25,320 nt of DNA. Source: a virus. Its lineage: Duplodnaviria > Caudoviricetes. A program made the position numbers and the translations under genes. Of the stretch, positions 11,379-23,781 are shown one piece after another (the stretch's first letter is position 1; the number at the start of each line of letters is the position of its first letter). Where the stretch lies: positions 1-25,320 of the IMG/VR virus record IMGVR_UViG_3300030207_000328; one strand, 5' to 3'. The notes below the pieces were generated by a model. The model was not told where the DNA came from and made no database searches. It worked only from the letters and a program-made list of their open reading frames with translations.

Positions 11379-12952
11379 TATTCTTCCTCCATCATAGGTT
11401 GCTGTTGTTGTTGCTGTTGAGCAAGCTGTGCTGTCATTCTAATTATCTCTTCACGGCTGGCTTTATCTCTAATAAGATTATCAGGAACACCAAACTTCCT
11501 TGCTAGATGTATAGATGTTTCTTCACTATCTATTAACAAGTTAATCATCTGTGGTCCAAATCTACCACCAACTAATTCTAAGAATCTGTCGACGGAAACA
11601 ATATCCTGTTGTGCCTGTGCTTGTGCCAATGGAGAAACAGATCTTACTTTTACTTCTCTACCATTGATTGTAGGTATCTCAATACGACCTTGTTTTTTTA
11701 GTATATGTACAACTCTTTGTAATACTGGTGTTACAAGTTCAGCTTGTAATCGACCGAAAGCAGAACCTATGCGTCTTGATAGATCAGCCATTCTTTCAGC
11801 AATCTCTGTAGCACTAGCTGGTGTTCTGTTTGGATCACCAAGCATATCATTATACAATGCTCTTTTGATATTATTACGCATATCATTTAACACAAGATCA
11901 GCGACATCAAATCTACCAGCAGTTGCTATTGGCTGTAATCCAGCAGAACCAGGCGACTTTGGAATTACAGTTCCCGGCACTAATGAAACATTGTCAGGAT
12001 TTATAACTCCATCATCTTCCATCTGATAGATACCAGATATAGCCATCTGTGCATTTTCTAATATTAGTTCAATAGTAAGGTTGGTAGTCTTGATTGCACT
12101 GAGGGCATTGATTAACGGACCTCTCCCATAAACCTCCCCAGATGCTTTCGACCAGCGATAAGCTATTATAGGACATGAACCAACACCCTCATACTGTTCA
12201 TCTAAAATCTTCTGTTTTGTCTCAAGATCAATAACGCAATATTTATGAGCCATAACATTAATTCTAGAATAATCTCTATATACTATTTCTAGTATCTTTC
12301 TTTTTTCTTCAGGACTTCTAAGGACTGCTTCTTTTATTTTTTGCGTAAGAATAGCTTTCGGATACGCAACCAAAAGCTGTCCACCCCTGATTTGACGTTC
12401 TCTATATATGGAGTCAACTCTGTCATCAGGACCGACATCCAAGACAACATGAGGTAATGGAATCGCTGAAAACCTAATCGGATTAACTGCATCACCCTCT
12501 TCGCATAATAGAACACCAGTTCCAACAGCACAGTCAAGAAACGACTCGTGTACTTCTTGAGCAAAGTTACTGTTTTGTAGAATCTCAAATACATAATCTG
12601 TTACTCCTTGCAGTTGAGAATTAACTTCATCTCTTTGTTCTTCAGGTACTTCTGAACCAGCAATAAAGTCAGCCCATCTTGCAAAGTTTGGTACAAGACC
12701 TGATTGCAACCTTGATGCAAATTCTTGTACACCGACGACGGCAGTTTCATCAAAAATTTTATCATCTCGTCTTTGACCAGGTGTTTCTGCATAAAAACTT
12801 TCTCTTTGTGGAAGAGCATACTCATAACATTCTTCAAACAATGATGTCCAATTATCTCTAAGTGACTTTGCTCTTTCATATCTTCTTAATAAATTATCTA
12901 CTGGTTTATCAGCACCAGTATTGATTGGTGTAATTGTATTTACTTCAACCAT
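11378..12952 (-). CDS. Portal protein (head-tail connector, T7 gp8-like), 524 aa
   Basis: IFD.TA......FASRL..GL.P, RW....GEVYGRGP, SATEI.ER and SPLA.AQ motifs. Confidence 0.93.
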   Translation of the reverse strand: MVEVNTITPINTGADKPVDNLLRRYERAKSLRDNWTSLFEECYEYALPQRESFYAETPGQRRDDKIFDETAVVGVQEFASRLQSGLVPNFARWADFIAGSEVPEEQRDEVNSQLQGVTDYVFEILQNSNFAQEVHESFLDCAVGTGVLLCEEGDAVNPIRFSAIPLPHVVLDVGPDDRVDSIYRERQIRGGQLLVAYPKAILTQKIKEAVLRSPEEKRKILEIVYRDYSRINVMAHKYCVIDLETKQKILDEQYEGVGSCPIIAYRWSKASGEVYGRGPLINALSAIKTTNLTIELILENAQMAISGIYQMEDDGVINPDNVSLVPGTVIPKSPGSAGLQPIATAGRFDVADLVLNDMRNNIKRALYNDMLGDPNRTPASATEIAERMADLSRRIGSAFGRLQAELVTPVLQRVVHILKKQGRIEIPTINGREVKVRSVSPLAQAQAQQDIVSVDRFLELVGGRFGPQMINLLIDSEETSIHLARKFGVPDNLIRDKASREEIIRMTAQLAQQQQQQQPMMEEE

Positions 12953-15434: not shown

Positions 15435-16232
15435 TTATCCCAGCAGTGATCGTATCTGCGACATGATACCAGTAAAACCACTCTTCTGTCGTCGTTTTCT
15501 TTTTCTTGAAAGTTCAGTAAGTAGAGTTGGTTCTATTTTTTCTCCAGTAACTAAGTCTAGTTTTGTTTCTTGTGGATTGTCTAGTCGGTTAACAATTCCA
15601 ACTTGCTCTTGTTGAAATGGTGTAAGACCTTTTCTTGTAAAACCTTTTGGTCCAGCCCTATCAGGTGTCATATCTATCAAAGAACCTTTACGACTAAAAC
15701 CTTTTGGTCCACCAGTTTTAACTGCCCTTGAATCTTGTACTCTTACAGATTGTGGGTCTGTGATAGCTTTGATTCTTGTTTCTTTACTAGCAAGTGTTGA
15801 TCCAGTAATAGGGTCTTTATAAATAGTTCCACTTTTTATCTGTCCACCTTTCAGTGTAAACTTTGTTGGACTCTTTGGCTTAGAAAGGGGTGGTGACATT
15901 TTTACTGGCTGGTTAGCTTCAGCTACTTTTCTTGTTATCTTAGGACCACTAGCTTTTGATACTACTGTCTGTATCTTCTTTGCATTGTCTGCACCTCGTG
16001 CTGGCGATTGTGCTTTTGATTTTGCTTTTGCAGATGCCAATGCTTCTTTTTGACTTTTTACTAAAGCAACTCTTGCTCTTTCTTTAGCTTGTGCTAATGC
16101 TTTTTGTGCATTGGCTTTCTCTTGTCTTTCCTTTTCTCTTTGGTCAGACCTAGACTCTTGTGCTGGTCTTGGCGATCTATTTTGTTTTTTCTTTTCTTCT
16201 TGTTTTGCTTTGTAAACACCTCTTGGTGGCAT
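15435..16232 (-). CDS. Highly basic, low-complexity hypothetical protein
   Basis: Likely start MPPRGVYK at 16232 with a GGGAG RBS; Lys/Arg/Ala-rich with two GPKGF.RKG repeats. Confidence 0.6.
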   Translation of the reverse strand: MPPRGVYKAKQEEKKKQNRSPRPAQESRSDQREKERQEKANAQKALAQAKERARVALVKSQKEALASAKAKSKAQSPARGADNAKKIQTVVSKASGPKITRKVAEANQPVKMSPPLSKPKSPTKFTLKGGQIKSGTIYKDPITGSTLASKETRIKAITDPQSVRVQDSRAVKTGGPKGFSRKGSLIDMTPDRAGPKGFTRKGLTPFQQEQVGIVNRLDNPQETKLDLVTGEKIEPTLLTELSRKRKRRQKSGFTGIMSQIRSLLG

Positions 16233-16233
16233 A

Positions 16234-16929
16234 TTAGTTCTCCCTATTTTTAGTTGATGTACTAGATTGCTTTGGTAAAGGCATTGCAGATAAAACTGCA
16301 TTTGCAAGTTTAGATTGCCTTACTGATTGACCTTCTGGTACATTCCAGTTAACAGCTAAGCTACTACTTTCTTTTGGATCAAAAGGTTTTCTATCTGGTT
16401 GTTCAGGAATACGAATACCAGCAAGCATCCTGCCTGGTCCATAAAGAACTCCACCTTGTTTAGCAAGTGCTTCTGGACCGGAAACAACTCTTGTAAATAA
16501 ATTATGTGCTAACTTTAAAGCAACATCTGTGTATCCAACATTTACTTTTTTTGAATCTTCTGTAAGAACATTGCCATCTGTATTTACATACTTTGTTCTA
16601 GGAAAGAAGTCATAAGTATCAATAACATTATAGCCATCTTCTGTTCTTCTTACACCAAATCCACCAAGTATTGTTTTTAGTTGTTTAGATGCACCTTCTA
16701 TATCTTCTTCAAAAATTGATTTTGTTTGAAAGAAAGCATTTATGTGTTCATATTTATACTGTCTGTATGTACCTACTTCGACGTCGCCCATTTGATCGTC
16801 AAGAAATGCCTGAAGTGCTTCCTGTGTTTCTTTACTTATCGACGACATCTTTAGTTCATCACTATCCATGAACTCAGGTAAAAGAGAGTTTGTTATAGCT
16901 TTTAAAAATATCTTTGTATTATCTTTCAT
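16234..16929 (-). CDS. Hypothetical protein, 231 aa
   Basis: Long ORF in the late operon; contains a TILGGF...Y.V.DTYDF motif; no function recognised. Confidence 0.6.
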   Translation of the reverse strand: MKDNTKIFLKAITNSLLPEFMDSDELKMSSISKETQEALQAFLDDQMGDVEVGTYRQYKYEHINAFFQTKSIFEEDIEGASKQLKTILGGFGVRRTEDGYNVIDTYDFFPRTKYVNTDGNVLTEDSKKVNVGYTDVALKLAHNLFTRVVSGPEALAKQGGVLYGPGRMLAGIRIPEQPDRKPFDPKESSSLAVNWNVPEGQSVRQSKLANAVLSAMPLPKQSSTSTKNREN

Positions 16930-17050: not shown

Positions 17051-17437
17051 CTAAGTAAGATCGATCTGTACCTTAATTTCACCAGCGTGTAGGTGCATAT
17101 GTTTATCTGGTGCTTTGAATCCAGCTCTATCAAGGATATCTTTACTTGCTTCAAGCTGGACATACTCACTTTTAGCACCGCTGGCTAGCTTAACAAGCTT
17201 TGCACTAGCTAACGTAGCATTAACACCCAATGATTCTGTTATTCGTTTCATCATGTACTCTTGCACATGAGGTAGTCGCAAAGCTTTGCTAGCCGTGACT
17301 CTCCCAGAGTCACCACTAGCGTAGCCAGCTTCTTGGCTGGCTTTAGCTATACTACAACCTTCTGCTACGAGTGTATCAACTAAAAGCATCTGTTTCTTTG
17401 TCAAAGGTCGACGACCATTGTCTAAATCTGAACTCAT
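17051..17437 (-). CDS. terS: Terminase small subunit, 128 aa
   Basis: LT.KQ...V, A...AGYA....TASK.LR.P.V HTH and SE.V.L.AS.DILDRAG motifs; RBS AGGGGG. Confidence 0.8.
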   Translation of the reverse strand: MSSDLDNGRRPLTKKQMLLVDTLVAEGCSIAKASQEAGYASGDSGRVTASKALRLPHVQEYMMKRITESLGVNATLASAKLVKLASGAKSEYVQLEASKDILDRAGFKAPDKHMHLHAGEIKVQIDLT

Positions 17438-17455
17438 GACAACCCCCTAGTCCCC

Positions 17456-17485
17456 CTAATACTTCATCAAAATACTACTTGTCAA
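17456..17485 (-). promoter_or_regulatory. Putative sigma70-type promoter for terS
   Basis: Perfect TTGACA (17485-17480), 18-nt spacer, TATTAG, just upstream of the terS RBS. Confidence 0.45.
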
Positions 17486-17560
17486 CCTACAATTATAGGC
17501 TTGGCTTGCCAGGGGCAAGCTAGTCTTATTGTTGGTTGCTAAGCCTAACCAAAGTTGCGT

Positions 17561-18736
17561 CATGATTAATAGAGCCACCTCTAAGGCAGACTAGGTTTGT
17601 GACCAAGCTTCCGCATCAATATCGTCGACTTCCTTACTTGTTCTAACAATTAGACGCCTTTGCTTTTTCGTGTGCCAACCTTTACCAACTAGAGGTTCTT
17701 ATATACCTCAAGATCAGTGGTGTTTGACATCAAGGCGCTCCTTTCACTGTTCTCCAACTACGGCAAGCATAGACATCTGAGGATGCCTAACATCCTGTCC
17801 AGAGCATATCACGCGTAGGAGTTTGTCACGAACCTCAGAGATATGACCAGTCTAACATTGTACACTGTCATCAGAAGTGAAGCACGCGTAAGACTCTATC
17901 TATTAATTATCTGAGACATGAGTGAAACTTCCACAATGCTAGTTTTTTAGTACTAAAAGGGCATACTAAAAACATAACTGCAATTTTAGAATCTAATAAG
18001 TTCTAAAGCATTTCGCACTTTTTTCAGACATTTTGAGTCTCCTACGATTTGGCTAAAATGCAACCCTTTCGCGAGGATCATGCTGTCAACATCACATATC
18101 ATTCGCACGCTTTCAAGTTTGTCCGTACCACCCATAGCCTAACTTGAAAGCGCGTTGATGTATGCTGTTCGCTAGTGATATGACTGACGTCATGGCGAAC
18201 AGTAGCTTCTATGTACGAATGATATGTCATGCCGTCATCATGATGCGAAAGCATTACATTTTAACCAAATAGGAGACTAGAAAATGTCTAAAAAAAGCAC
18301 AAAATACAAGAACTTAGTAGATTCTAAAATCGCAGTTATTAACTACCATTCTGGAGATTCACTAACATATCTCAGAGAATCAATAGCTAGAGACGCGTGC
18401 TACACTTCTGCTAACAGCATACAATATAAGTCTGATCAAATCTCTGAGAACCGAGACAAACTTGCAGACCTACGCGAGACATACTCTGGACAGGAAGTCA
18501 TCCATGTTCAGATGTCTAAACTAGCCTACGTCATTGGAGAACAGCAAAAGGAGCTTTCAGAACTTGATGACAGACACCAAGCTGATCTCGAGGTATATAA
18601 GAAATTAGTTGGTAAAGCTTGGACTCAAAATGCAAAGTCATCTAATTCCAAGAACAAGCTAGCGGAACTCGACGAGATTGATGCTTTATTGAAAGCTTAA
18701 TCACAAACCAATTCTCCCTAAGAGGTGGTAATCATG
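17561..18736. repeat. Giant imperfect inverted repeat (arms ~17561-18108 and ~18213-18736)
   Basis: Hand alignment shows the reverse complement of the left arm is colinear with the right arm throughout. Shared blocks include GAGGTATATAAGAA, TAGATTCTAAAAT, CTCTGGACAGGA, TAGTTGGTAAAG, TAGGAGACT and AGAGGTGG. Confidence 0.95.
18284..18700 (+). CDS. First early gene, coiled-coil protein of unknown function, 138 aa
   Basis: RBS AGGAG at 18271, intact ORF, followed by an intrinsic terminator; forms the right arm of the inverted repeat. Confidence 0.8.
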   Translation: MSKKSTKYKNLVDSKIAVINYHSGDSLTYLRESIARDACYTSANSIQYKSDQISENRDKLADLRETYSGQEVIHVQMSKLAYVIGEQQKELSELDDRHQADLEVYKKLVGKAWTQNAKSSNSKNKLAELDEIDALLKA

Positions 18737-18750
18737 CCACCTCTTTTTTT
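18721..18750 (+). terminator. Rho-independent terminator
   Basis: AGAGGTGG-taatcatg-CCACCTCT followed by a T tract. Confidence 0.8.
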
Positions 18751-18790
18751 ATGCTTATCAACCACTTACTGTATCAACAAGGAGGTACAT

Positions 18791-18970
18791 ATGTTCGAAA
18801 TTATTATTACATTAACTTGTGGTCGTCGTCAAAAACTGTCATCTAAATATTACTATTTCAATCATGCTGTTAGACGTATGAACCACTACAAAAATTATCT
18901 ATCAACAAAATCTAGATATTACCAAAACAAAATCAAATATATCGACATAAAATACAACCATCAATTCTGA
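18791..18970 (+). CDS. Hypothetical basic protein, 59 aa
   Basis: AGGAGG RBS before the ATG at 18791; the longer start in the ORF track overlaps the terminator. Confidence 0.55.
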   Translation: MFEIIITLTCGRRQKLSSKYYYFNHAVRRMNHYKNYLSTKSRYYQNKIKYIDIKYNHQF

Positions 18971-19261: not shown

Positions 19262-19494
19262 GTAGGATGGGTCAAATCAAACTAGCTGGATGGTTGAGCA
19301 TACCATTATGTATTGCAATCATATATGTAATACACAGCTTTCCACAAATGTTTCCCTATCATGGCATATGGCAAATCGTTATAGCTGGGGTAGCATTAAA
19401 TACAATAGTTCATTTAACAATAACAATTCCAAGATGGGAGAAAGACAATGAGCAAAGCAGATCAAATTGTTCAAATCATTATCAAAAAAATTGA
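19258..19494 (+). CDS. Small two-transmembrane hypothetical protein
   Basis: ATGA overlap; two hydrophobic segments. Confidence 0.55.
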   Translation: MSRMGQIKLAGWLSIPLCIAIIYVIHSFPQMFPYHGIWQIVIAGVALNTIVHLTITIPRWEKDNEQSRSNCSNHYQKN

Positions 19495-20329
19495 AGACGG
19501 CATTGATAACAAATGGCAAATGCCCTGGCATAATCGAGACTTTAGATTTCCAATCAACACTGATGGCTATGAGTATCAAGGATTGAATTGCTTTTGGCTT
19601 TGGATGGTCAAAGATATGCGAGGTTATACCAGTAATCAATGGGGTACATACAACCAATGGAAACAAATTGGTGGTGATGTCGGAGGTCAGTCAGCAACTG
19701 CATACAATCAATACATATTGCAACCAAGAATCGGCACTGACGACGACGATAATGTATTCATCAAGGGCTTCAAGACTTGGGCTGTCTTCAATCGCGATCA
19801 AGTCAAAGGCTTACCTAAACTGCAATCAGAACAATCATTTGTTACAGAAGAAATGATAACCGATAAAGCAATCAAACAGCAGTGCATCAACTGGTTCGCA
19901 AACATACCAGCAACAATTCATACTGGTCACAACAAAGCCTGTTATGTTCCATCAAAAGATGAAATCCGTATGCCTGACTTTGATACATTCAGAACAGACA
20001 TTGATTATTATTCTGTACTGGCACATGAGATTATACATTGGACAGGTGCGGACCAAAGACTAAACAGAAAGCTATCACAAGAAAGACAATCATATGCTTT
20101 CGAAGAATTGGTTGCTGAACTTGGCAGTGCATTGATAGCTGCAAATTTAAAGATCCAATCTAAACCAACAGACAATACAACTGCTTACCTCAAAGGCTGG
20201 TTACAAGCAGTTAAAAAGAAACCAAAGACACTATGGGATGCAATGTCTTTGGCTAAACACGCAGTCTCTTTTCTCAATGATTATCAACGCAAGAATATTG
20301 CAAGATCATTGCAGAAAAAGGTTGCATAA
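19448..20329 (+). CDS. ardC: ArdC-like antirestriction protein (ssDNA-binding N-domain plus zincin-like metallopeptidase domain)
   Basis: W.MPW, Y.G.N...LW, W.TY.QW...GG, VFN.DQV.G, ACY.P..D.I.MP, AHEIIHWTG (HExxH) and YAFEELVAELGSA motifs. Confidence 0.88.
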   Translation: MSKADQIVQIIIKKIEDGIDNKWQMPWHNRDFRFPINTDGYEYQGLNCFWLWMVKDMRGYTSNQWGTYNQWKQIGGDVGGQSATAYNQYILQPRIGTDDDDNVFIKGFKTWAVFNRDQVKGLPKLQSEQSFVTEEMITDKAIKQQCINWFANIPATIHTGHNKACYVPSKDEIRMPDFDTFRTDIDYYSVLAHEIIHWTGADQRLNRKLSQERQSYAFEELVAELGSALIAANLKIQSKPTDNTTAYLKGWLQAVKKKPKTLWDAMSLAKHAVSFLNDYQRKNIARSLQKKVA

Positions 20330-21092: not shown

Positions 21093-21303
21093 TTGTACTA
21101 AACAAAGCGACATCAAAATTGAAGTCGTATGGGGTATGGATAACAACGACACCAGCGAATATCATTTCGAAAGCGAAAAAGAAAAGACTGCTTTTGTTGA
21201 TGGAATTAATGAAGCAGTAGGCTGGCATGATTGTGTTGTATGTGGTGATGGTTATGAATATTCATCAGCAGAAGAATACTTAAAGGAGATGGATGATGAG
21301 TAA
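21085..21303 (+). CDS. Hypothetical acidic protein
   Basis: GGAGGT RBS; Y.F.S..E..AF..GI.EA.GW motif. Confidence 0.6.
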   Translation: MVNCTKQSDIKIEVVWGMDNNDTSEYHFESEKEKTAFVDGINEAVGWHDCVVCGDGYEYSSAEEYLKEMDDE

Positions 21304-21538
21304 AGATAAACCAGCTACTGTATATTATATCCCAGCTACAAGATTTCTTGGTATTCAATTAGATTTTGCATCTAAATTGATGGAAGAAAAATATGGTTTG
21401 ACTTGTTTAGAAAAAACAGAATGTGGACATTATAAATATACAGACATTCATCAAGATATATTTAATGAAATCTATGATGATGTTGAAAGTATTTTAGAAA
21501 AAAATAATGTCTATAAAAAAGATTCTCAATGTCCATAA
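21293..21538 (+). CDS. Hypothetical protein
   Basis: AAGGAG RBS; intact ORF. Confidence 0.55.
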   Translation: MMSKDKPATVYYIPATRFLGIQLDFASKLMEEKYGLTCLEKTECGHYKYTDIHQDIFNEIYDDVESILEKNNVYKKDSQCP

Positions 21539-22718: not shown

Positions 22719-23378
22719 ATGAGTTTCAAAAGAGTCTCAGCAGTTATGGATATTGAACTATCAGATGGTCTTGCAAAGTGGGTACTTGTAACACTTGCGC
22801 ATCATGAGAACAGCAATACTGGACACTGCTTTCCATCAATAGATAGGCTAGTAAAACTAACTGGTTTATCAAGAAGTACAGTAATCAGATGTTTGAAAAA
22901 GCTGGTTGATCTCAGGTTAATACACAAACATCCTGATCGTGGTAAGTCTAATCATTACGAATTTCTTTTTGAATACAAAGTCATCAGAAAGAACCAGTGT
23001 CAGAGTGACACTACACCAGTATCAGACAGACACCCTAATAGAGAAGTAATAAAGAAAGTCGTCGATACAGAACAGCAGAAAGATGTATGGAAACAATGGA
23101 TGCCATCTGATGCTGAGAAAGAAATCCTTAACAATGAATTTGGAGAGATAGATCATGCCAAAGAAATTATCAAGTATAAAAAATATTATGCCAACTCAAC
23201 AATCGCAGTACCATTCAAGCACTACAGAAGCTGGTGTCAAAGAGTCGCAGAGTTCGCTGGAGTTAACAGAGAGGGAAAACAAGTATTACCTAGTGTCCAA
23301 ACTGGAAGGAGGAAATCCAATCGCAATAGACAAAGAAGTTCGCTTGTCAGTGTTATTAGAACTATCAGGAATGATTGA
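22719..23378 (+). CDS. Phage replication initiator (N-terminal winged HTH, lambda O-like organisation)
   Basis: AK.VL..LA.......CFPSI.RL...TGLSRSTV.R.L..L (HTH_36-like), SN.Y motif, internal iterons. Confidence 0.78.
   Translation: MSFKRVSAVMDIELSDGLAKWVLVTLAHHENSNTGHCFPSIDRLVKLTGLSRSTVIRCLKKLVDLRLIHKHPDRGKSNHYEFLFEYKVIRKNQCQSDTTPVSDRHPNREVIKKVVDTEQQKDVWKQWMPSDAEKEILNNEFGEIDHAKEIIKYKKYYANSTIAVPFKHYRSWCQRVAEFAGVNREGKQVLPSVQTGRRKSNRNRQRSSLVSVIRTIRND
22993..23033. repeat. Two 19-bp iteron-like direct repeats (putative origin)
   Basis: ACCAGTGTCAGAGTGACAC (22993) and ACCAGTATCAGACAGACAC (23015), 22-bp period, inside the initiator gene. Confidence 0.6.
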
Positions 23379-23781
23379 TATAGAAGAGTCTTATCAAGAT
23401 GGTAAGATATCAGTTAACAGGATAGTCATACATTCAGATGACAAAGAGAAGTTACACCGTGCTTTGAAGGTATCAAAAGGTTATTCTACTACACTTGAAG
23501 ATGATGACTTGTTAGCCAGGCTTACGATTATGTTTTCAATGATGAACAAACAAAACTTTGATGAAGAAGATTTAGAATTGAAGATACGTTCTCTTGTTCA
23601 GCAGATAAATCATGTAGATAAAATACCAGCAGACATAATGATAAAGTGTATTGACTACATGACAAAGTACAAAGAGTGGTATCCTTCATACGCAGACATC
23701 TATAAATTCTGCGGTGATAAGTTTATGCTAAGAAAAAAGCTAACCAATGCCTTGCATGAACGCATTAAATACTTGCAATAA
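23155..23781 (+). CDS. Hypothetical protein, possible helicase-loader/lambda P-position protein
   Basis: Follows the initiator; C-terminal PAD....C......WYPS.ADI motif. The start is either 23155 (GGAG RBS) or 23371. Confidence 0.55.
   Translation: MPKKLSSIKNIMPTQQSQYHSSTTEAGVKESQSSLELTERENKYYLVSKLEGGNPIAIDKEVRLSVLLELSGMIDIEESYQDGKISVNRIVIHSDDKEKLHRALKVSKGYSTTLEDDDLLARLTIMFSMMNKQNFDEEDLELKIRSLVQQINHVDKIPADIMIKCIDYMTKYKEWYPSYADIYKFCGDKFMLRKKLTNALHERIKYLQ

Follow-up and report, generated by a model that had tools for sequence, protein, structure and literature searches.

An inverted copy of the first early gene, kept across a clade of podoviruses, is predicted to let the template strand of that gene fold back on itself

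The window (the whole stretch of DNA analysed, 25,320 nt) belongs to a podovirus with T7-like structural genes. Its nearest isolate is the Pelagibacter phage Hodr (TerL 65%, terS 64%), a cultured member of the clade whose host is Pelagibacter HTCC1062. About 1400 viral stretches are estimated to match the terS of the window, and the phages that carry the element described here are very common in the ocean. Five MAG matches were considered as a guide to the host and were rejected, as they look like binned viral contigs.

TerL and terS are on the minus strand and the early block is divergent from them. The terminase small subunit gene, terS (17051–17437, minus strand; PHROG 2538, E 8e-9), is the first late gene. 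The early block includes ArdC, an O-like initiator, a RecE-like exonuclease and Erf. The ArdC-like protein, a ssDNA-binding anti-restriction protein (19448–20329, plus strand; PF08401, PF18818; PHROG 7245), is encoded downstream in the early operon. Among 27 loci the next large early gene encodes ArdC in seven, a DUF932 protein in 13 and neither in seven (a scan of 75 proteins, mostly one to three per locus, with seven each for Hodr and the window). ArdC is reported to combine a ssDNA-binding domain with anti-restriction activity in recipients (PMC7213743). Elsewhere in the window there is a Lys/Arg-rich low-complexity ORF between terS and TerL (15435–16232, minus strand) and an adjoining ORF of 231 aa (16234–16929), the first without a family match and the second likewise without a name. 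The O-like initiator ORF (22719–23378) and the next ORF (23155–23781) overlap by approximately 220 nt in different frames, and a similar overlap is seen in locus L056. The small early gene at 21278–21513 is a variable cassette, being replaced by 21 other letters in contigs of two runs.

The first early gene (18284–18700, plus strand) encodes a protein of 138 aa from an unnamed phage family, with 96 relatives at E ≤ 0.001 that include Hodr gene 022. The predicted structure is an all-helical long coiled-coil hairpin (pLDDT 91). There was no Pfam or PHROG family for this protein and no PDB match at E ≤ 0.001. The best VIA Z was 10.4, among generic coiled coils, the best Atlas value was 0.77 and the best viral match was an uncharacterised phage protein (E 1.1e-4). 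A role in anti-defence or polymerase binding would be a guess. The gene is preceded by a Shine–Dalgarno sequence (18270–18275, plus strand) and followed by an intrinsic-terminator-like hairpin with a T tract (18720–18752, plus strand).

There is one long imperfect inverted repeat in the window (17533–18764, 1.2 kb): one arm holds the first early gene and the other, upstream of terS, a non-coding mirror of it. The repeat had been recognised in a preliminary description of this DNA, although it extends slightly further than was reported there. The mirror arm (17533–18108, minus strand) is an inverted copy of the leader, ORF and terminator of the early gene and forms the 3′ arm in the predicted fold of the minus strand; between 17561 and 18108, each of the three minus frames contains stops. 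In the gene arm (18213–18764, minus strand), which is the early gene's template strand, 71 nt precede the ATG and 64 nt follow the stop; the fold-back ends just beyond the terminator-like hairpin. The Shine–Dalgarno sequence lies within the stem, and its positions are 0.80–0.96 paired across 25 lineages. The apical loop (18109–18212) has two small hairpins (approximately 18109–18151 and 18164–18203). A side hairpin of 28 nt is inserted in the mirror (17946–17973, minus strand); it is present in L008 too, and L035 has a similar insertion in the same place.

Both the window and Hodr have one strong fold per genome, with no comparable further fold-back in either. Rfam covariance models gave two weak matches, of 22 and 15 bits against gathering thresholds of 90 and 229. 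Contigs assembled from DNA in other studies cross the repeat (a 3648-nt contig in run X4 and an 11.8-kb contig in run X9), so it is not an assembly artefact, and there are no strand-changing joints in three DNA runs. Contig depth is doubled at 17106–17753 in one run, which may be due to strain sharing. The template and variable repeats of a diversity-generating retroelement were considered and rejected, because the repeat is inverted and the differences fall at C (28) as well as at A (43 of 93).

When the gene arm was aligned with the reverse-complemented mirror, transitions were asymmetric under all four scoring sets, with ratios of A>G plus C>T to G>A plus T>C of 39:6, 36:3, 39:6 and 35:3 (binomial P 5e-7 to 4e-8). 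A hand count in the preliminary description (about 20 A>G, 12 C>T, one G>A and one T>C) agrees well with the stricter computed set (23, 13, 1 and 2), and its reading of these differences as G.T on the minus strand, and not A.C, stands. The minus-strand transversions in the stricter set are T.T 16, G.G 9, G.A 7, A.A 6, C.T 4 and C.C 2. The two strands also fold with different stability. The DNA MFE of 17533–18764 is −387 for the minus strand and −325 for the plus strand, in comparison with −121 to −145 for shuffles (six per strand), and the RNA MFE of 17561–18745 is −655 and −531 kcal/mol, respectively. Mismatches are evenly spaced in the window (P 0.007); the spacing was not significant in L056 and L035.

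All 12 loci found through the gene carry the repeat. Among 69 distinct regions upstream of terS, 49 score at least 60 and 20 score 30–58, with control regions, taken only where obtainable, at 20–37; the 20 regions under 60 count against the view, developed below, that the fold-back serves to express the gene. A subfamily alignment brought in 160 further loci; the gene was called in 143, and 66 were distinct and had sufficient flanking sequence. Each of these 66 folds back (scores 65–535; near-copies of the window included), and in 65 of them the inner edge lies 61–119 nt before the ATG. Every one of the 50 long mirrors ends 20–73 nt past the stop, over the terminator-like hairpin. The remaining 16 are short and end within the gene, which shows that cover of the whole gene is not essential. 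A tree of 29 lineages needs four changes between long and short, at least two of which are forced by well-supported branches. The repeat persists where the first genes share less than 30% identity.

The Hodr fold-back (L013, approximately 11985–12560) scores 160 but has no G.T bias (4:4), and its strands have DNA MFEs of −75 and −72. It is interrupted almost only by small bulges, not by mismatches. No such element was found in HTVC010P, MEP301 or DvV-SI2 (best scores 78, 43 and 45), and the HTVC010P match is AT-rich and without G.T bias (8:14). In L030 (4706–5590) and L066 ArdC itself is the first early gene and the fold-back scores are 33–34, counted as none; this suggests that the mirror accompanies the coiled-coil gene. 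In L048 (5368–5819), L053, L062 and L077 the mirror ends 190–280 nt before the terS promoter, and in L048 there is a second hairpin in this gap.

The mirror changes in step with the gene. Between the window and L008, whose gene arms are 84% identical, 52 of 65 gene differences are matched at the paired mirror site, and 44 of these 52 restore Watson–Crick pairs. At unchanged gene sites the mirror has changed at only 26 of 405. Additionally, each mirror is 0.76–0.83 identical to its own gene in comparison with 0.54–0.64 for the genes of distant relatives. One DNA strand is therefore predicted to fold back. Another alignment gave 40 concordant changes, of which 23 were isolated and 21 lay within 6 nt of a mismatch retained in both lineages, while some occurred in runs; point compensation or very short conversion tracts fit this better than wholesale copying.

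The excess of G.T on the late strand is found throughout the clade. Late-strand counts in 27 independent lineages are 338:60 for G.T:A.C, 299:74 for G.A:C.T, 90:14 for G.G:C.C and 142:62 for T.T:A.A, and 26 held-out lineages give 798:162, 526:194, 167:52 and 231:121. G.T exceeds A.C in 24 of the 27 and in 26 of the 26 (50 of 53 lineages), which supports the earlier proposal that the strand that folds is the template (late-sense) strand and not the mRNA. The preliminary description had overlooked, however, that the late strand is G-rich in any case, with a GC skew of 0.33 at the four-fold sites of the gene outside the mirror and of 0.15 in terS. Class counts alone are thus no proof of selection, and we modelled the choice of mismatch instead.

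The model was a conditional logit of which of the three mismatching bases the mirror carries, fitted to isolated mismatches (n = 300 and 735), with energies from the Biopython DNA mismatch tables or from ViennaRNA Turner 2004 (DNA:DNA and RNA:RNA duplexes, respectively). Base composition alone explains 32 units of mismatch choice in the first set of lineages. Over the base-composition model, late-strand DNA energies add 28.6 and 31.0 log-likelihood units and RNA energies 0.3 and 0.0; over a class-saturated model, with a free rate for each class, DNA adds 25.4 and 27.7 and RNA 5.8 and 0.9. The DNA term has slopes of 1.8 and 1.1 per kcal/mol. For the held-out lineages, adding RNA energies to the DNA model gains 0.0 units, whereas adding DNA energies to the RNA model gains 26.8. 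Early-strand coefficients are negative or near zero in pooled fits, and the window alone (36 sites) points weakly in the same direction as the clade. The ranking of mismatch stability that had been invoked for the window therefore holds, and specifically for DNA; the choice does not follow RNA nearest-neighbour energies, as it would in a functional double-stranded RNA hairpin. The background G skew does not account for the effect of neighbour context. Taken together, the data show that the fold-back is real, clade-wide and under selection for DNA pairing on the template strand. More generally, a neighbour-dependent mismatch test of this kind could serve to tell DNA from RNA structures by sequence data alone.

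The terS promoter (17443–17485, minus strand), which follows the mirror on the late strand, consists of TTGACA, 18 nt and TATTAG with two G tracts. The pattern TTGAC, 18 nt and an A-x-A hexamer with two G tracts precedes terS in 26 of 27 lineages. The G tracts (17443–17456, minus strand) are directly past the −10 box and have 5–8 G with a spacer of 2–9 nt; they may serve as a signal for packaging, act as a leader element or form a G-quadruplex. In Hodr the promoter is TTGACA-17-TATACT without G tracts. The mirror ends before the terS −35 box in 20 of 26 lineages and 8–92 nt past it in the other six, so an ordinary late transcript would mostly exclude the mirror. Matches to the late-sense promoter pattern are in excess immediately after the mirror (12 of 29, with 1.0 expected). 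There is no such excess outside the gene arm (2 of 29, with 1.2 expected) or within the loop (1 of 29, with 0.4 expected).

Before the early gene, in the early sense, the pattern occurs in 0 of 29. An ordinary two-box sigma-70 promoter was not found there either, the scores for the two arms being 9.3 and 9.4 in comparison with 9.1 for shuffled sequence and 11.4 for terS. There is no canonical −35/−10 pair on either arm, and this counts against expression from the fold-back. A −10 box on the mirror only, suggestive by eye in several lineages, was not significant (P ~0.2). In the leaders of L188, L226 and L281 the mirror has, at the palindrome loop, a T in place of the G of the gene; this makes the hexamer more like TATAAT but creates an unfavourable C.T mismatch, and it is seen in these three cases only. 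The small GC-rich palindrome itself is present in the leaders of 38 of 49 lineages, centred approximately 31 nt before the ATG, and is absent from the window. Its upstream half is 0.90 paired with the mirror and its downstream half 0.62 (P 6e-7), and there is a poorly paired patch immediately upstream of it. The palindrome may form a hairpin at the 5′ end of the mRNA, with a pre-melted site of initiation before it, or may be an operator destroyed by the fold-back.

RNA run X20 gave two long matching contigs. One (17294–17450, depth 4.7) ends at the predicted terS start, a weak indication, and the other (17800–18082, depth 2.6) is on the mirror. Both are unstranded and may be DNA; the mirror contig is nevertheless a result against expression from the fold-back. 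Contigs of a second RNA run, X21, map to capsid-region genes and to two further pieces; none covers the element, which proves nothing. There is a minus-strand promoter-like site at 18832–18803, in a window scan that found six sites with 7.2 expected.

The mirror, its co-variation with the gene, the strand bias, the DNA-type energetics, the borders and the lack of a two-box promoter are all read directly from the sequence. The interpretation that we prefer, with a probability of roughly 0.55, is that the minus strand, when single, folds back into a duplex transcription unit, comparable to the Frpo promoters of plasmids but covering a whole gene, and that it does so most likely at entry. That a DNA strand folds is highly probable, and that the fold-back is used to express the first gene is probable; that it acts at entry rather than in replication is a tentative assignment, close to even. 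Folding would rebuild the leader, reading frame and terminator of the gene as duplex, and RNA polymerase would transcribe the first gene while the second strand is still absent, most likely during entry into the cell of the genome end with the mirror and first gene. Initiation would occur at a mismatched bubble approximately 40 nt before the ATG. On a naked single strand bacterial polymerase is reported to make hybrid-bound RNA of approximately 20–30 nt, and release of the RNA to require rewinding with a non-template strand (PMC2241882). The mirror is predicted to act as that strand, and the mRNA would then be released; a mirror over the Shine–Dalgarno sequence and the start of the ORF, or over the whole gene to the terminator, would supply it. 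Restoration of the duplex would switch the unit off.

The single strand could arise from one-strand entry, or from 5′-to-3′ trimming of the leading end that leaves a 3′ tail. Packaging that starts near terS and proceeds into the late genes would cause this region to be packaged last and ejected first, with the folding strand carrying the 3′ end. Among near-complete contigs (one of 25 was dropped because no promoter was found) the break lies 0–2.5 kb inside the late genes in six of 24 and within 5 kb of the terS promoter in 14 of 24. The region is variable and clustering at the boundary is confounded, so these breaks were not used as genome ends. We know of no route that makes such a strand single in a tailed phage, and this counts against the interpretation. 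The unbiased fold-back of Hodr, the lack of the leader palindrome in the window, the short mirrors and the single strong fold per genome likewise speak against it.

An alternative that we consider unlikely is that the fold-back is a priming or processing signal, which would prime plus-strand synthesis in rolling-circle replication, through its own 3′ end or an RNA primer, or would duplicate a terminal repeat at packaging. The DNA energetics fit this equally well, there is a single copy per genome, and the mirror is the 3′ arm and adjoins terS and the conserved G tracts. For duplication of a terminal repeat the concatemer hairpin of T7 is a precedent. Fixed terminal repeats are reported as the rule in marine phages (93.7%; PMC7111524), and Frpo promoters have been proposed to supply primers too (PMC12672017). 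However, a primer has no need of a mirrored ORF, yet the terminator is where 50 of 50 long mirrors end, and in 65 of 66 mirrors the start lies just upstream of the leader. Additionally, a full non-template strand would release the RNA and not retain it as a primer, and the distance from the mirror end to the terS −35 box is variable (approximately −100 to +80 nt).

Less probable again is pairing through a late-sense RNA, be it a rod-like transcript of 1.2 kb or a mirror-only RNA that silences the gene in an R-loop on the template. The bias is compatible with G.U pairs, the RNA MFE favours the same strand, the X20 contigs lie on the mirror and at the 5′ end of terS, and the promoter-like site at 18832–18803 is on the minus strand. 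Against this, RNA duplex energies add nothing beyond DNA energies, and isolated G.A mismatches, which RNA 1×1 loop energies do not favour, are common (63 and 134). Mirror A opposite template C is rare (5 and 22) in comparison with mirror A opposite template G (28 and 67), whereas the two types should be similar in RNA:DNA hybrids. There is also no conserved late-sense promoter past the gene arm or in the loop, and the contigs of X21 lie on capsid genes and leave the element uncovered.

It is very improbable that the repeat is an inverted duplication without function, whose arms stay alike through template switching or gene conversion and whose bias comes from strand-asymmetric mutation. The G-richness of the late strand, the part of mismatch choice explained by base composition and the runs of concordant changes would all suit such upkeep. 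The neighbour-dependent DNA energies, however, add 25–28 units over any context-free mutation matrix, just over half of the concordant changes are isolated and just over half are close to a retained mismatch, as described above, and the element keeps its borders fixed to the transcription unit and persists where first-gene identity has fallen below 30%. Least credible is a self-antisense control of translation, in which the mirror would be part of an early-sense transcript that folds and so masks the ribosome site of the gene. The plus strand does fold far better than shuffles and the Shine–Dalgarno sequence is in the stem, but the plus-strand mismatches are of the least stable classes (A.C, C.U and C.C), the coefficients of the early-strand energies are negative or near zero and it is the opposite strand that has the G.T excess.

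Tailed phages are taken to inject, and first to transcribe, double-stranded DNA, and a single-stranded state at the first gene is not expected in a tailed dsDNA phage. That DNA pairing is selected clade-wide on one of the strands implies that this gene regularly passes through a single-stranded stage. A further, speculative reading, which goes beyond the fold-back transcription unit that we prefer, is that the genome of these phages, in whole or for its first kilobases, might enter single-stranded with the 3′ end leading, and that infection might boot from a self-folding DNA cassette that rebuilds one complete double-stranded gene, followed by plasmid-style genes for the ssDNA stage (ArdC, DUF932). 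As a cultured member of the clade exists in Hodr, the state of the entering DNA is directly testable. We found no description of the element in the literature searched, which included few subscription papers.

Several known systems resemble the element in part. T7 has a short palindromic hairpin at the concatemer junction, involved in duplication of the terminal repeat, and this too is a DNA fold-back adjoining packaging genes, in the podovirus whose structural genes those of the window resemble. In contrast with the phage element, it has no gene mirror, and the window has an O-like initiator, a RecE-like exonuclease and Erf, not T7 polymerases. The hairpin promoters of the N4 virion RNA polymerase have a few base pairs, are extruded from supercoiled duplex and are read by the packaged polymerase. 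Like the proposed unit, they are template-strand-specific DNA hairpins for the first transcripts of a tailed phage, but the arms of the phage element are approximately 100–600 nt long. In a family scan, the internal virion proteins covered matched PHROG 342 or 418 or had no match, with no polymerase family among them. A loose precedent for one-strand entry is RcGTA, a phage-like particle whose DNA is reported to enter alphaproteobacteria by the competence machinery (ComEC/ComF/ComM; PMC10883770). GTA DNA is not self-expressing phage DNA.

The closest comparison is with the Frpo hairpins, which are described as allowing RNA polymerase to read the first genes from a plasmid strand as it enters the cell, until second-strand synthesis silences the hairpins (PMC9849209, PMC11541004, PMC12672017). 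The leading region of F served as a positive control for strand bias: three of four tested regions form hairpins, with template-strand mismatches of G.T 20, A.C 7, G.A 17 and C.T 10. Like Frpo/ssi (Frpo1 and Frpo2 of F), the phage element is a long imperfect template-strand hairpin upstream of first-expressed genes, its mismatch bias has the same direction as in the three F hairpins, and its neighbours are of the ArdC and DUF932 kind, F having a DUF932 gene two genes behind the hairpin taken as Frpo1. Unlike Frpo, it is found in a tailed dsDNA phage in which no oriT or relaxase was seen, surrounded by terS, TerL, portal, capsid and early phage genes and not in the leading region of a conjugative T-strand. 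Its stem has no canonical −35/−10 boxes, and blastn of the mirror and loop against 72,556 plasmids gave no match at E 0.01. Additionally, the stems in F end 36–46 nt before the ATG, whereas the phage stem covers the Shine–Dalgarno sequence, part or all of the ORF and, in the long form, the terminator; and plasmid leading regions carry several hairpins, in contrast with one per phage genome. As canonical boxes, sequence similarity and conjugative context all fail, the phage element is not a member of the Frpo family. If the proposed interpretation is true, the Frpo principle moves from conjugation to phages and is extended to a whole gene and its terminator: it would be the single-strand-promoter principle in a new form, and the mode of phage entry behind it is possibly new.
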